DNA of 64,000 nt, from the IMG/VR virus record IMGVR_UViG_3300037047_000119. One strand, given 5' to 3'. The stretch is from an uncultured virus (IMG/VR IMGVR_UViG_3300037047_000119). Lineage: Duplodnaviria; Heunggongvirae; Uroviricota; Caudoviricetes. Shown piece after piece: positions 44,467 through 50,639 of this stretch. Position 1 is the stretch's first letter. The number at the start of each line of letters is the position of its first letter. A program made the position numbers and the translations under genes. Below the pieces are notes generated by a model that was given only the letters and a program-made list of their open reading frames with translations, was not told the DNA's origin and ran no database searches.

Positions 44467-44495
44467 ACGATAAACCTCGGGGGTCGAACTGTCAA
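44467..44495 (-). promoter_or_regulatory. Sigma70-type promoter TTGACA-N17-TATCGT for the MerR/VIT-vWA operon
   Basis: Perfect -35 box, 17-bp spacer, and -10 box 23 nt upstream of the ATG. Confidence 0.7.
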
Positions 44496-44550
44496 GAACT
44501 GGCTCGAAAAATTCTCGTTTTTGGGATCATCTGAGCGGCCGTTTGAGTAG

Positions 44551-44887
44551 TCTGGGTGTAGCAAGGCTGGCGGCAACAGTAAGCCCCCGGCAAGAAAAGT
44601 AAGACTGGCACCTGTTCAAAGGATATCGTCGCTATGCAACGTGCTCCGCCGTAACGAGAAACGTGACTGAACTGCCCCGCGTGGGGTTACTGAGGATGCA
44701 ACGGCAAGGGGGACGACGCCCCGCCCTGAGAAGGGGCGACGGTCGGTGGCAACAACCTGGGGTAACGGAGGTTTCCCATGATGCCGTAACGGGCGCCGGG
44801 AACAAACGCAAAAGATGCTACTTCAGAGTGGTGGAGACACCCCGCCTGGGCCGAAGGGGCATACGGTTCGGGCGGGGTGTCGTTTTT
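44551..44887 (+). ncRNA. Candidate multi-branched structured RNA of unknown class
   Basis: Eight or more nested helices found by eye in a gap with no credible ORF, ending in a terminator. Confidence 0.55.
44836..44887 (+). terminator. Intrinsic terminator
   Basis: GACACCCCGCC/GGCGGGGTGTC 11-bp perfect stem, extendable with G-U pairs, followed by GTTTTT. Confidence 0.75.
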
Positions 44888-44929
44888 GGTGTCATCGGAG
44901 TAGAGTCCCTCACAAGAGGAGGACTCTCA

Positions 44930-45091
44930 ATGCGTTGGGTTTTGGGACTACTGTTGCTGGGACTGTCACTGACGGTGTCGTGTGCCCACTTTCAGAAGGG
45001 CTGTCGGTGTGGAGGGGCGCACATCACTTGGGCTAAAGTGTGTCGGTCATGTCCTTGTGACTGCGACAAATGTGAGAAACCGTGTCCTTAA
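44930..45091 (+). CDS. Small Cys-rich putative lipoprotein, 53 aa
   Basis: AGGAGG SD; MRWVLGLLLLGLSLTVS-C signal peptide and lipobox-like site; 8 further Cys residues. Confidence 0.65.
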   Translation: MRWVLGLLLLGLSLTVSCAHFQKGCRCGGAHITWAKVCRSCPCDCDKCEKPCP

Positions 45092-46299
45092 CGGCATCCT
45101 GATTTCATCTTCCCCCGGAACACGGCTCGTCCTCGGTCAAGCGGGATGTTCTCCACGCTGCATGTCCCATCCTCGAAGGAGGTCAACAAACTGATCCCTT
45201 GCTGCCAGTCGGCATTCGGGTCGGAACCCGGAACAATTCCGTCAACGCGGCAAAGACATCCCGGGCTGGTCGAGAACACGGAATAGCTTCCTGATCGACC
45301 TGGGATCGACCGATACGCCAACTCTCTTCGATGGATATGCCCGAACACCTCATGACAGGTGGCCTCTCTTACGGAAGCTGCTACCGTAGCACCACCACCT
45401 TTTCGCACCACATCCCCATGACGGAACCGAAGGTCGTCCATCCAAAAATCATGCTTGTGGTATCTGATATTGAGACCGGACAATTTTAACAGGTAGGGGA
45501 CACTGAGGAGTGGCTCCTCCTCTGTTCCCATCAGCCCAAGCAACTCATCCGCTTGAAGGGTGAGGAACTTTTCGATCCGCTCCTCGTGGTTACCCTCCAT
45601 GTACTCGATGTCGGCGGTCAGATTCCCCATTCGGAGGCGGACGAGCCACTCATGGAAAGCCTCCAATGCGGGCTGGGTTGTGAAACGGTTCTCCGGTTTT
45701 CGGGGGAACTTCGTAGTCCAAGAGGTAAGGTCGAGCATGTCCCCAAGCAATACGATCGTGTCTGGTTTCACCTCGCTGGCAACCTGAAGGACGATGTCCA
45801 GCGCTCTCTCATCATGGTATGGGATCAGTGTCCGCTTTTTGAAGTCCCAGTCGAATCCAAAGTGGGCGTCTCCAAAAGTGAGCACCGTCTTAGATCCCGG
45901 ATTCCCGACAGGCTTCGGCAACTGAGCCACCGAAACCTCTTTGACCCCGTTGAGCCACTCCGGTTTTCGCTCCAGGTGTGCTTTGATCTGCCAGAGTTCC
46001 TTCCCGTCCGGGGAGTCCCACTTGTTGGCAGTCCAGGCAGAAACGATCCATTTTGCGGTGTCAATTTGGGCCACTCGCAGCAGTTCGTCGAGTGTGTGAA
46101 TGGTCTGTCCGGAACTAACAACGGTCTGGCCATTATCCGCTACAAAAACTGTGTTCTGCGAAACAATATCCTGCGACAGAGTTTTCATGATCAGATAGCG
46201 TGCTTTATGACGAGAAATACCAGCAGCCTGAGCAGCTAATGCATAGGATCCAGTGCGGCGAAATTCTGCCATCAAAACTTCTAGGTTGAGTTTCTTCAC
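45088..46299 (-). CDS. Calcineurin-like metallophosphoesterase with N-terminal HTH-like region
   Basis: Complete motif set GDAH, GDMLD, GNHE, HGD, GHIHR. Confidence 0.9.
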   Translation of the reverse strand: MKKLNLEVLMAEFRRTGSYALAAQAAGISRHKARYLIMKTLSQDIVSQNTVFVADNGQTVVSSGQTIHTLDELLRVAQIDTAKWIVSAWTANKWDSPDGKELWQIKAHLERKPEWLNGVKEVSVAQLPKPVGNPGSKTVLTFGDAHFGFDWDFKKRTLIPYHDERALDIVLQVASEVKPDTIVLLGDMLDLTSWTTKFPRKPENRFTTQPALEAFHEWLVRLRMGNLTADIEYMEGNHEERIEKFLTLQADELLGLMGTEEEPLLSVPYLLKLSGLNIRYHKHDFWMDDLRFRHGDVVRKGGGATVAASVREATCHEVFGHIHRRELAYRSIPGRSGSYSVFSTSPGCLCRVDGIVPGSDPNADWQQGISLLTSFEDGTCSVENIPLDRGRAVFRGKMKSGCR

Positions 46300-46373
46300 G
46301 TCGATTTTCTCGCTCGTTGAGGGTTACTCATCCCCCGGCACAACCGGAATGCGGCCTTGTTACTAACCCCGCG

Positions 46374-46390
46374 CTATAGGGCGACCAACG
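46374..46390 (-). promoter_or_regulatory. Putative phage late promoter (CGTT-N7-CTATAG)
   Basis: Repeated motif upstream of the metallophosphoesterase. Confidence 0.55.
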
Positions 46391-46462
46391 AGAAAATTAC
46401 GGAGGTCTATTAGTAAACTGAGAGTCTTCCCGGTATAGTGCTTGAGGGAATAGGAGATTCCA

Positions 46463-47119
46463 ATGGGATGTGTATACAGACTCATAGCCCCCAATGGCAA
46501 ATCCTATGTGGGGTACACGCAGGATCTTGTCAAAAGGATCAAAGAGCACACCAGCTTGGCAAAAACCTCCGGGGACTACCTGATTCACAGGGCAATCCGT
46601 AAATACGGGTGGGATCAATTCCGAGTCGAGGTTTTATTTGAATCGAATGATCTCCAAAAGCTCAAATCCAAAGAGATCGAAAAAATTGTAGAACTGGACA
46701 CGCATGTGTCCTCCAAACGGGGGTACAACCTAACCAGAGGTGGGGACGGGGTATTAGGGCACCGTCATTCTCCCCAAACCAAAGAGAAACTTCGACTGTC
46801 TCATCTAGGGAAAAAACTTCTCCCGGAAACCAAACGGAAAATAGCGGAGGCACATAGAGGGAGAAAAAATACCCCCGAGCATAATCGAAATATCAGTTTA
46901 GCCATGATGGGACACCCGTCCTATAAAAAGTCTGGCACTCCCTGCAAAGAGTCCACCAGAGAGAAACTGAGCAAAATAATGCAGGGTAAAAAGTATCCCA
47001 GCCGAAAACCACCCCCGCCTATCACCGAGGAACACCGTCAAAAACTACGAGAGGGACAGGCCAGAAGACGAGCCAAAGAACAAGAGGAGAAAAGGAATGC
47101 TTCCGGAACATCTGCGTGA
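46463..47119 (+). CDS. Free-standing GIY-YIG homing endonuclease with NUMOD3-like repeats
   Basis: GCVY...YVG.T...KR..EH...E...GYN; repeated (H)S.ETK.K.S....GKK units. Confidence 0.9.
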   Translation: MGCVYRLIAPNGKSYVGYTQDLVKRIKEHTSLAKTSGDYLIHRAIRKYGWDQFRVEVLFESNDLQKLKSKEIEKIVELDTHVSSKRGYNLTRGGDGVLGHRHSPQTKEKLRLSHLGKKLLPETKRKIAEAHRGRKNTPEHNRNISLAMMGHPSYKKSGTPCKESTREKLSKIMQGKKYPSRKPPPPITEEHRQKLREGQARRRAKEQEEKRNASGTSA

Positions 47120-48038
47120 CTTTCAGACGCCCATTCGAGTTCTTGATCATGGCTACATACTGTTAATAGATGTTATGGGGGATGATGATGCGGTGGTTCA
47201 AGCAGCTAGGGTGTCTTATGCAAGGGGCACAAAAAAATCAAATTCCGACAAACAGCTTCTCCGATATCTTCTAAGATCAGGACACACATCGCCCTTTGAA
47301 CAGGCACAAATCAAACTAGAGATAAAACTCCCCATTTATGTCGAACGTCAATGGGCTCGGCACAGGACGGCTTCTTGGAACGAGGTGTCCGGACGATACA
47401 GTGAACTTCCGAACGAGATGCACACTACAGAAGGGCATGCCTTCCGAGTCCAGTCCACCGACAACAAACAGGGGTCGGGAGGATATCTCACAGAGTGGCC
47501 TACGGAAATCAGCCGCCCCGAGTTCGACGGCAAAAAACTCCCTGTGGGCGAGTACCTGTCAAAACAAGAGAACTGGCTGCATGAATCTGCCCACTGGATC
47601 TACCAGGAGCGCCTTGATCTCGGTGTCGCCCGAGAGCAAGCCCGATGCGTCCTGCCTGTCAGTACCTACACATCAAAGGTATGGACCATCGACCTCCACA
47701 ACCTGTTGAATTTTTTACGTCTTCGGATGGATTCCCACGCCCAGTTGGAGATTCGACAATATGCAAATGCCCTCGCTGAGATCGTCAAAAGCTGGGTTCC
47801 GTGGACATGGGAAGCGTTCGAGGACTACACTCTGGGGTCGATGACATTCTCCCGACAAGAACTTCTGGGGATTTCGAGTCTACTGAACCGCTGTGGGTCT
47901 TTGACCACCACGGTGGAGCATTCTGGCTTGAAGGGCAGAGAGGCTAAAGAGTTCAAGGCGAAACTGGTCAAACTGTGGGGACTGGATCCTCGCTGGGGAG
48001 AGTCTCTTTCGGAACAGCCACAAGTTCCCAAGCCGTAA
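47097..48038 (+). CDS. thyX: FAD-dependent thymidylate synthase
   Basis: AARVSY, H.SPFE, RHRTASWNEVSGRY signature, AREQAR.VLP, LR...HAQ.EIR.YA. Confidence 0.97.
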   Translation: MLPEHLRDFQTPIRVLDHGYILLIDVMGDDDAVVQAARVSYARGTKKSNSDKQLLRYLLRSGHTSPFEQAQIKLEIKLPIYVERQWARHRTASWNEVSGRYSELPNEMHTTEGHAFRVQSTDNKQGSGGYLTEWPTEISRPEFDGKKLPVGEYLSKQENWLHESAHWIYQERLDLGVAREQARCVLPVSTYTSKVWTIDLHNLLNFLRLRMDSHAQLEIRQYANALAEIVKSWVPWTWEAFEDYTLGSMTFSRQELLGISSLLNRCGSLTTTVEHSGLKGREAKEFKAKLVKLWGLDPRWGESLSEQPQVPKP

Positions 48039-48198
48039 ATGTGCCCGTCCTACGTTCGTCTCCCGTCATCCAGGTACAACTGTAGTTGATCGTCTCTCCC
48101 GACTTGTGATCTTGTAAAATGTGAACTACCACCATAGAGGAAGGGCCGCCGGTCACGTGTCGAACGAGATCTCCCATTTGAAACTCGCGGAGTGTCAT
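47968..48198 (-). CDS. Small YodC/DUF2158-like SH3-fold protein
   Basis: FQMGDLVR...GGP..MVV...CTW......GTF...EL; GGAGG SD; convergent overlap with the thyX 3' end. Confidence 0.65.
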   Translation of the reverse strand: MTLREFQMGDLVRHVTGGPSSMVVVHILQDHKSGETINYSCTWMTGDERRTGTFTAWELVAVPKETLPSEDPVPTV

Positions 48199-48220
48199 TC
48201 GTCCTCCATCCGCTAGAATA

Positions 48221-48616
48221 TCACAGCCACAAAGGAGCCCCCTTATAACGGAAACCCTGAGCCTTGAGGTAGTCTATCGTCCGTCCAATTTGTTCAGTCG
48301 TTCGATCAGGTCCTTCCTTGAAAAGCGCCAGTGTCACAAAAAGGTACCCCTCCCGGGCGTGAACTTCGGCGCCATACGAGGAACTATTACCAATCTCGAA
48401 TCGTTCCGGAGTATCGTCCCCACGAGTAGCGGCACCCATAGCATCGAACAGTTCCTTCTCGGCCCATTTCAAATCGTCTTGAACGTCATGGATTTTCCGT
48501 TTTGTACCATCCAAATCGATAGAGATCTGGAAAACAACTCGACGTTTGTCTACAAAAAACTGAACCTGCCCTCGAATGCCCGCAAGTTTTTTCAGCGCAA
48601 CCAGAGAATCACTCAT
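48221..48616 (-). CDS. Hypothetical protein
   Basis: 131 aa, AGGAGG SD. Confidence 0.75.
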   Translation of the reverse strand: MSDSLVALKKLAGIRGQVQFFVDKRRVVFQISIDLDGTKRKIHDVQDDLKWAEKELFDAMGAATRGDDTPERFEIGNSSSYGAEVHAREGYLFVTLALFKEGPDRTTEQIGRTIDYLKAQGFRYKGAPLWL

Positions 48617-48719: not shown

Positions 48720-48736
48720 TCATAGGGGTTCTAACG
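48720..48736 (-). promoter_or_regulatory. Putative phage late promoter (CGTT-N7-CTATGA)
   Basis: Repeated motif. Confidence 0.5.
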
Positions 48737-48895
48737 CACGTGCTCCATTTTGACGGGGTCTTCTCCGGAGAGAAGACGGCAGATCGCATCCGACTTGCCG
48801 ATCTGACACCGACCCATCTCAGCCTTGCGCTGCGCAGTCGGCATGCATCCTGAAAACAGGATCAGGAACAGGAGGCAGGTTAACAGGAGTTTCAT
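48731..48895 (-). CDS. Small putative lipoprotein, 54 aa
   Basis: Below the ORF-track cutoff. MKLLLTCLLFLILFSG-C signal peptide with lipobox-like FSGC; fills the gap after the 48906 stop. Confidence 0.6.
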   Translation of the reverse strand: MKLLLTCLLFLILFSGCMPTAQRKAEMGRCQIGKSDAICRLLSGEDPVKMEHVR

Positions 48896-48905
48896 GGGTT
48901 TCCCA

Positions 48906-49214
48906 CTAGCGCAGAGAAACTACTTGAATGGAGAAATTGACCACCGGAATGTGATCCGGGTCATCCCGCATCCTATCAAGCTCCTCCTGAAGTCGCTCTA
49001 CCTGCTCTGGGGAGGCATTCTCAGCACAGACACATGAATGCGGGTGAACCGTTACCACATGGACATCGAAATTGGTCACCATGGTATAGTCGGGATCGTT
49101 GAGGCAGAGTTTAACCTGTTCCCGAAGCTCCTCGATCTGCTCTTGGTCCATGTACTCGTTCCAGTAAATTCGAGCCACAACTTCATCTGCCGGGTTGGTC
49201 TTCTCGTCACACAT
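48906..49214 (-). CDS. Hypothetical 102-aa protein made of two internal repeats
   Basis: Start reassigned to ATG 49214 (AAGGAGG SD); EQ.E.L.E......DPD...V.NF...VV occurs twice. Confidence 0.7.
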   Translation of the reverse strand: MCDEKTNPADEVVARIYWNEYMDQEQIEELREQVKLCLNDPDYTMVTNFDVHVVTVHPHSCVCAENASPEQVERLQEELDRMRDDPDHIPVVNFSIQVVSLR

Positions 49215-49289
49215 AGAGTCCTCCTTGGAAGTCATGAGACCATACCCACAAAAAACTTGATCCGCAGGGGCTTGATCGGGTAGGGTAAA

Positions 49290-49482
49290 AACATGACCGA
49301 CGACGCCTCTCCATTGGAAGCGCAACCTCGTCGGTGTTTCGCGGTGGGCTCACGGGCTCATCGCATCCCCGCGGGGACACTCCCGACTGGTACCGGAAAG
49401 GTTTGGCAACCGCGGGTCCTCTCCGGAGATAGCATCTCCGGACCGACGCCCACCGAGTCATCCTCGGTGGGCGTCTCTTTTT
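49290..49482 (+). ncRNA. Candidate structured small RNA (tandem hairpins)
   Basis: Four stems plus a terminator; possible promoter TTGATC-N18-TAGGGT at 49257-49286; no credible ORF. Confidence 0.5.
49445..49482 (+). terminator. Intrinsic terminator
   Basis: Perfect 13-bp stem GACGCCCACCGAG/CTCGGTGGGCGTC followed by TCTTTTT. Confidence 0.8.
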
Positions 49483-49559
49483 GGTCAGGATTAAAAAATG
49501 TCAAAACTCCGGGAGGGCCATTTTCCATGCCTTTGGAGTAGAGTGAACCAAGGCACGAA

Positions 49560-50639
49560 ATGAAAGGGCTTCTCATGAGTTCAAATCTAGTCACCAAAAC
49601 ACTTGACCCCGCGAGCACAATCCTAGCCAACCCCGGCTTAAACTGGAACAAACTGGCGGGGTCGGCGCACTCGAAAATCAACTGGAAAGAAACCAGAGCT
49701 TTTTTGAACCCGTTGGATATTGAACCGGACAATAAAACTTTCGACCCAGACAAAAAATACAAATGGCTTACCAGACATCTCATCCAACGGACGGTCAAAC
49801 CCATCCACATGGAAATTGGGGCAGCTTTAAAGGAAGGTTCTGGACTGTTGTCATCGATCCAACTTCACAAAGTAGGGGCTCAATATCGAGTCCTGGACGG
49901 AAAACAAAAACTGCATGGGGTATTGGAGTATGGCCTGTCCGTAGTAGCACCTGTAGTTGTCTATGAGGGACTGACGGAAGAGGAAGAAGTTGCTGTTTAC
50001 CTCATTGCCAACAACGTCACCATTCAGCAACCCCATGATTTTCTTCGCGCCTTGAGATCCAAAAGTTTGGCCTTTGAACATTTTGAGGGTTCTTTCGAGG
50101 ACTCGGAAGGTGTTATTGGCAGGGAATCTTTCCCCATGGTCATCCGCTGGAGTGGGATTCCTACTAAAACAATCTCCTCCTACCCTGTAACAGCCCTTGT
50201 TAGAATGTCGCTATACCTCTACAAAAAGTATCCCAGCATTGCGGCGGACAAGGCATCCAAAATCCAACTAGGTCAACACTTTCTGACAACGGACTGCTTA
50301 GATAACATGACGCTGCTCAGTCAAGTTATCCAAGGTTTACTGGATCTGGGGGTCACTAATCCAGTGTATTTTAAAGAAAGTGTTTTATACCCACTTTTGA
50401 TGCTTGCCTCGGAACATGGGGCTAAAAAAGTTCTTGAGTTCCTGAGCCATGGACTCCAGAGTCCCTTTTGGAGCACCGAATTGCCGGGGGAACTCAGAGG
50501 CCGTTTATCCGTCAAACAAGTGCGGAAAACTTATCAGCTTGTGATGGATTCTCTCCACTACAAAAAGAAATCTTCCAAACTGGAATGGCCCAAATGGGCT
50601 GAGAACCTTCCAGTTCCTACCCGTTTTATGGGGTTGTAA
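49560..50639 (+). CDS. ParB-N/DGQHR-like domain protein
   Basis: IQR, YRVLDGKQKL (compare DGQQR/DGQHR) and V.VYEGLTEEEE...Y...N; visibly more AT-rich than the structural genes. Confidence 0.55.
   Translation: MKGLLMSSNLVTKTLDPASTILANPGLNWNKLAGSAHSKINWKETRAFLNPLDIEPDNKTFDPDKKYKWLTRHLIQRTVKPIHMEIGAALKEGSGLLSSIQLHKVGAQYRVLDGKQKLHGVLEYGLSVVAPVVVYEGLTEEEEVAVYLIANNVTIQQPHDFLRALRSKSLAFEHFEGSFEDSEGVIGRESFPMVIRWSGIPTKTISSYPVTALVRMSLYLYKKYPSIAADKASKIQLGQHFLTTDCLDNMTLLSQVIQGLLDLGVTNPVYFKESVLYPLLMLASEHGAKKVLEFLSHGLQSPFWSTELPGELRGRLSVKQVRKTYQLVMDSLHYKKKSSKLEWPKWAENLPVPTRFMGL

Follow-up and report, generated by a model that had tools for sequence, protein, structure and literature searches.

The non-coding unit described here is, in our view rather probably, a phage gene for a small RNA whose first hairpin (P1) would serve as an orphan antitoxin mimic, or decoy, against the AbiF protein of the host. 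That P1 itself is akin to the abiF-motif RNA is very likely, as judged from sequence and predicted pairing, and since this copy of an abiF RNA has no AbiF gene adjacent to it, its most likely use to the phage would be as a decoy against AbiF defence. A standalone phage sRNA of the antitoxin-mimic type had been among the suggestions of a first-pass annotation of this DNA, and it gains support from P1 being an abiF-type module without a toxin gene.

The stretch of DNA that was analysed (the window, 64 kb) comes from a large tailed phage and has genes for sheath, baseplate and ThyX. Matches to its tail-tube-like gene were found at 45 loci, and the viral records concerned are up to 536 kb long; genomes of this phage clade have 300-536 kb, and 64 kb of this phage are visible. 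The sequencing runs that contain DNA of the window are labelled as groundwater metagenome, and no sequence variants of the window were found in three sequencing runs. The RNA unit lies in a divergent gap of 345 nucleotides, between a minus-strand gene of 102 amino acids (start at 49214) and a plus-strand gene of 359 amino acids, within a block between the sheath and tube genes that is variable among relatives. No close relatives were found for the proteins that neighbour the unit, and synteny is therefore unusable; the downstream protein (49560-50639) matches no Pfam or PADLOC family and has remote relatives only. A groundwater RNA run (assembled contigs with a small share of words, which may hold DNA) covers parts of 44622-48570; these contigs do not reach the RNA unit and are uninformative on its expression either way. 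The features of the gap and its flanking genes are as follows:

48906-49214, minus strand: divergent upstream gene, 102 amino acids, with a GGGTATGGT box of its own (49239-49247, minus strand)
49257-49286, plus strand: putative promoter of the RNA, consisting of TTGATC (49257-62), 18 nucleotides and a GGGTAGGGT box (49278-86)
49296-49335, plus strand: P1, abiF-motif-like antitoxin module (Rfam RF03085 at 22.8 bits, homologues, covariation)
49341-49364, plus strand: P2, 10-bp hairpin, no homologue found
49368-49416, plus strand: P3, 7-bp stem around a 35-nucleotide interior of uncertain fold, no homologue found
49417-49421, plus strand: pyrimidine linker, anti-Shine-Dalgarno-like, unpaired with a probability of about 0.97
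49422-49442, plus strand: P4, perfect 9-bp hairpin
49445-49482, plus strand: intrinsic terminator, 13-bp stem and U tract
49535-49544, plus strand: GGAGTAGAGT promoter-like box of the downstream gene, a clade-wide motif outside the RNA
49560-50639, plus strand: downstream gene, ParB/Srx-like (DUF6551/DGQHR-like) and not Abi_2, judged by its Atlas look-alikes

The protein of the divergent 102-amino acid gene apparently consists of two copies of a segment of about 38 amino acids. The first copy has 46-59% identity to a segment of a conserved frame of about 560-680 amino acids, probably the portal, that is present in 11 related records, and the small protein is possibly a stand-alone mimic of a portal subdomain. 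Two further small ORFs, at 44930-45091 (plus strand) and 48731-48895 (minus strand), have no Pfam match and start with a hydrophobic N-terminus that ends in a cysteine, presumably resembling lipoprotein signal peptides.

The GGGTAGGGT box stands 9 nucleotides 5' of P1, and TTGATC precedes the TAGGGT hexamer of the box by 18 nucleotides; a mirror copy of this type of motif faces the divergent 102-amino acid gene. Most likely, the unit has its own promoter and gives an RNA of about 190 nucleotides that spans about 49292-49482, with a start at about 49291-94. Position 49257, at which the first-pass annotation let its candidate RNA begin, is better read as promoter than as transcript. P1 is absent from the minimum free energy structure when folding starts at 49257 or 49262; it is present in folds that start at 49285 onward and also in those from 49226 and 49240.

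The GGAGTAGAGT box downstream of the terminator had been regarded as a shared feature of this unit and of a second RNA candidate (candidate 1), but it is a clade-wide promoter-like motif that stands before the next gene and appears to be its promoter. It has two exact occurrences (44897 and 49535), and its number with one mismatch allowed (3 seen, 3.25 expected) is not above chance; motifs akin to it precede genes across the phage clade. GTAGAGT occurs 18 times in non-coding DNA and GGTAGAG 56 times, against 5.6 and 19.4 expected, respectively, and GTA[GT][AG]GT is found upstream, in sense orientation, of 24/840 genes of related phages, against control counts of 9 for the antisense orientation upstream and, within coding sequence, 4 in sense and 6 in antisense.

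Two other motifs of this kind were seen in the clade. CTGTCAA motifs stand before a MerR-like HTH gene in the window (44480-44500) and are repeated in relatives (L001:6830-6865, L003:6425-6460 and L007:6880-6915); they are probably operator or promoter sites. In the 536-kb phage G019 (L123-L149), a promoter-like motif of two parts, CTTACTT and, about 11-12 nucleotides on, GCGTAGAT, is present in about 80 copies; it is specific to this phage among those examined.

The stretch of 226 nucleotides from the promoter to the end of the terminator folds at -109.4 kcal/mol with a z-score of -4.82, and none of 200 shuffles was as stable, which bears out the earlier proposal of a structured RNA; all five proposed stems are in place, as is the 13-bp terminator with its U tract. 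Taken together, the window and 1.94 Mb of DNA from related phages have 99 strong terminators; when these are ranked by structure in the 155 nucleotides 5' of them (10 shuffles each), this one comes about fourth to fifth (z -3.7). When folding starts at 49285-49294, the RNA becomes a chain of five hairpins. P1 consists of a 7-bp stem, a bulged A, a 3-bp stem, a loop that starts with CUCUCC and the 3' bulge CAACCU; the first stem of the earlier annotation is present, with the exception that its A49303-T49328 pair falls on an invariant bulged A of the family alignment. The P2 stem includes three G-U pairs, the 3' end of P3 is GCAACC, as in P1, and the GGGA/TCCC pairing inside P3 overlaps with the outer P3 stem at G49374.

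Searches found no homologues of P2, P3 or P4, and neither a model of the whole unit (R1) nor DNA searches identified a full-length homologue in 33 related records. Pattern scans with the promoter-P1 junction and with P3 gave chance-level matches only (61, 65, 8, 12 and 7 loci) and a scan with a 23-mer pattern gave 0 loci. No tRNA or tmRNA was found by scan; likenesses to SRP RNA, an HDV-like ribozyme, a riboswitch and CRISPR repeats were also considered, had no Rfam support and were dropped.

P1 scores 22.8 bits against the Rfam abiF motif RF03085 (E 0.051, in a scan of 221 nucleotides), which is below the gathering cut-off of 37 bits, and it is therefore not filed in this family. The Rfam scan that had been proposed as a check thus had a divided outcome: at cut-off there were 0 matches over the window, and the narrow scan gave the below-cut-off abiF match at P1, which was not reported in a 6-kb scan at E<=10.

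Copies in other phages were found by sequence. A 16-nucleotide pattern from the interior of P1 has 11 viral matches, and one of these (L311, record G034) extends to 23 identical nucleotides; the flanking stem of this copy is of other sequence and still pairs, and the copy scores 27.4 bits against Rfam abiF. Blastn identified the element also in Xanthomonas phage SB3 and then in BUCT609, Stm18 and DoCa7, with Rfam abiF scores of 37.1 for SB3 (reaching the cut-off), 36.8 for DoCa7 and 29.6 for BUCT609. In the T7-like phages, the module follows the RNA polymerase gene and is within the non-coding gap there. It adjoins repeated TTTGGTAC-containing promoter-like boxes and a second hairpin in SB3 (L332:2430-2580) and in L339 and L341 (506-700), and in SB3 and BUCT609 it is placed between two copies of the TTTGGTAC box. 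The G034 copy has a GGAAAGAC-loop hairpin just 5' of it (L311:336-365, minus strand) that matches nothing in Rfam; this hairpin is also found, mostly in non-coding DNA, in about 60 Vibrio phage records, in phiEt88 and in PhiPLPE.

As an independent test, a model built from two phage copies only, P1 and the copy of G034 (model R2), was run on 12 Abi_2 loci of Gammaproteobacteria, collected from 151 genomes of the class to which G035 belongs. It matched 6/12 loci with E values of 1e-9 to 4e-4, tying P1 to RNAs upstream of Abi_2 genes: the six matches lie 3-21 nucleotides before an ORF of 288-307 amino acids and are followed by a U tract. One of the six ORFs, that of L348, was examined directly and confirmed as Abi_2. 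Four of the six leaders pass the Rfam cut-off; the L348 RNA, which is the closest of the six to P1 with an inner core one indel apart from that of P1, scores 33.6 bits, and true cis copies can therefore fall below the Rfam cut-off.

In a MAFFT alignment of 11 selected copies (P1 and 10 of the 19 R2 matches, chosen by score and an intact stem, which inflates the pairing figures), 110/110 pair cells are paired and 6/10 pairs have changed on both sides; 0/500 shuffles reached as high and slid controls were 34-47% paired. These 11 selected rows have the two-stem hairpin with bulged A, CUCU loop and CAA-type bulge of the abiF structure together with covariation, and the outer stem of P1 is unlike that of the other copies, yet fully paired. 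Nine matches were left out: six that were weak or in coding sequence, two on plasmids, and that of Stm18, which was presumed to be nearly a duplicate of BUCT609. As the choice of rows is favourable and the structure agrees with the Rfam model, the alignment confirms kinship and does not discover a fold. The search for homologues and covariation, which had also been proposed as a check, was thus successful for P1 and found no homologues for P2-P4.

The two plasmid matches, of Magnetospirillum and Azospirillum (L333:2494-2537 and L334:2504-2523), have retained the inner core but not an intact outer stem, which is altered or broken in them, and no Abi gene is annotated beside them. The P1 core had five matches, versus 0 for the control, when it was searched in 401 genomes of the phylum to which G035 belongs; three of the five were inspected, all lacked the outer stem and two were inside long ORFs, and the matches were rejected. 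Among the 33 related jumbo-phage records, none has an abiF motif over cut-off, and a further model (R3) had no additional match when it was run on the window and on 1.94 Mb of DNA from related phages, indicating both specificity of the model and absence of the motif from these relatives. The motif is thus not a conserved feature of the clade.

The abiF-motif RNAs (RF03085; AbiFr of PbAbiF; RCd22 of the C. difficile AbiF, Abi_2 PF07751), which are the antitoxins of type III toxin-antitoxin systems, share with the unit the stem, the bulged A, the 3-bp stem, the CUCU loop and the CAA bulge, and also the position a few nucleotides after a promoter and a terminator downstream. In contrast to these RNAs, the unit has no Abi_2 gene after it, a short U tract, three extra hairpins and a score under the cut-off.

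The C/U-rich linkers offer another reading, in which the unit is an AbcR/RsaE-like base-pairing sRNA that blocks ribosome-binding sites of host or phage mRNAs and P1 is incidental. There are 12 anti-Shine-Dalgarno 4-mers versus 6.6 in shuffles (p about 0.04), the linker at 49417-21 is unpaired, and Rfam gives weak matches to ar15 over P3, P4 and the terminator (25.1 of 40 bits) and to CcsR1 (10.4 of 65 bits). We consider base pairing of this kind highly improbable: the conserved loop of the abiF motif accounts for one CCUCUCC, 36 start regions of the window gave only long gapped helices in duplex folding (with no control), no homologue supports the 3' half, and the ar15 score, being below the cut-off of 40 bits, does not place the unit in the AbcR/ar15 family (RF02345). 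Among protein sponges, which the first-pass annotation had considered, one of the CsrA type is also unlikely, with 1/5 GGA in a hairpin loop.

No Abi_2 gene was found among 35 ORFs of the window (a few short ORFs were left out) or in SB3, G034, BUCT609, Stm18 and DoCa7, in a search that detected the positive-control genome. Directly 3' of the RNA is the ParB/Srx-like gene in place of an AbiF toxin gene, and with the toxin gene missing the unit is not an AbiF toxin-antitoxin locus. The phage records with the motif comprise four complete T7-like genomes and G034, a 17% fragment; the module is an orphan within the 64-kb window and in the four complete records. It is unlikely that P1 is the displaced ordinary antitoxin of an AbiF encoded elsewhere on the phage, or a functionless recent relic of a captured AbiF locus. 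Prophage-encoded AbiF systems do exist, according to part of a preprint (10.1101/2025.04.15.648962), only 64 kb are visible where genomes of the clade have 300-536 kb, and none of the relatives searched has the module; however, the four complete T7-like phages keep three distinct versions of the module, with intact stems and without Abi_2, and a P1 outer stem that differs and still fully pairs is not expected of a decaying relic.

The ParB-like gene at 49560 could be the target of a cis-acting leader, in which host AbiF bound at P1 (or a refolding there) would decide whether transcription passes the terminator, and the phage would thereby sense the defence protein. RCd22 is described, in part of the same preprint, as acting on its downstream gene via premature termination (10.1101/2025.04.15.648962), and repeated 8-mers allow the 5' side of the terminator to pair with P1 (3' arm) and with P2 (5' arm). 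A leader is nevertheless rather improbable: the terminator pairs have a probability of about 1, a promoter-like box that belongs to the downstream gene stands between the terminator and the start of this gene, and the genes after the other phage copies differ both from the ParB-like gene and from each other.

Candidate 1 (44586-44889, plus strand) had been grouped with the unit as a set sharing one design, but there is no sequence similarity between the two. It has no abiF module, no Rfam match of note and no phage homologue that could be found, and may be a separate RNA gene of another family. It contains six GYAAC motifs, and a contig of the RNA run spans 44622-44833 (contigs only, which may be DNA).

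AbiF is an RNA-controlled toxin described as ancestor of Cas13. As far as covered by the part of the preprint used here, the abiF-motif RNA binds to and neutralises the AbiF HEPN RNase, in trans as well as in cis, and depends on its stems, and trans neutralisation was shown for RCd22 (10.1101/2025.04.15.648962). If P1 is a decoy, the RNA would be made from the GGGTAGGGT promoter during infection, and P1 would bind the host AbiF and keep it off once the host's own antitoxin runs down; with AbiF occupied, abortive infection would be avoided. The stem of the bacterial copies is followed directly by a U tract, and the toxin gene comes shortly after; in the P1 unit there are only three U, and with the U tract so shortened, transcription can continue across P2-P4 as far as a strong terminator that is separate from P1. 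The hairpins P2-P4 may stabilise the RNA or act as further decoy modules.

Phages are known to carry RNA anti-CRISPRs (Racr), solitary repeat units that are decoy copies of the defence system's own RNA. Both Racr and the unit would be orphan defence-RNA decoys, with a Cas13-ancestor toxin, not a CRISPR complex, as the target of the unit. The pseudo-ToxI of phage PhiTE reportedly consists of tandem repeats that are expanded in escape mutants. Like the unit, and going by part of its description (PMC3475682), it is a phage RNA that mimics a type III antitoxin to escape abortive infection; it differs in the toxin family (ToxN), whereas the unit is a single module within a promoter-terminator unit and the module occurs in wild phages of unrelated groups. 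A 2026 review mentions, in the part considered here, that phages escape ToxIN with RNA mimics and that a cos-site hairpin of phage sk1 inhibits AbiF and does not resemble the AbiF ncRNA; the same part lists no AbiF escape mutations and this one unrelated protective hairpin only (PMC13064643). The sk1 hairpin and the unit are thus alike as phage-encoded hairpins against AbiF and differ in that P1 is a recognisable homologue of the AbiF ncRNA. In the literature searched, we found orphan abiF RNAs nowhere reported from lytic phages; Zilberzwige-Tal et al. 2025, its supplements or those of the bioRxiv preprint may contain such a report.

A bolder and more tentative reading, which we regard as possible and no better than that, is that the antitoxin RNA of AbiF was captured independently by lytic phages that are unrelated to one another (this jumbo phage, G034 and the T7-like phages of Xanthomonas and Stenotrophomonas) and serves them as a counter-defence, and that here it heads a modular decoy transcript, with the other hairpins mimicking RNA partners of further defence proteins. 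The ground for the modular part is that other hairpins stand just before the abiF motif in G034 and in the T7-like phages. P2-P4 would then become baits for RNA-binding defence proteins.

An orphan AbiF antitoxin in lytic phages would be a concrete counter-defence that is testable with an RNA of 40 nucleotides, and since the module is also present in cultured phages (T7-like phages of Xanthomonas and Stenotrophomonas), the idea can be tested there. More generally, the finding suggests a search route: orphan, below-threshold copies of defence-system RNAs in phages may lead to RNA anti-defence genes.
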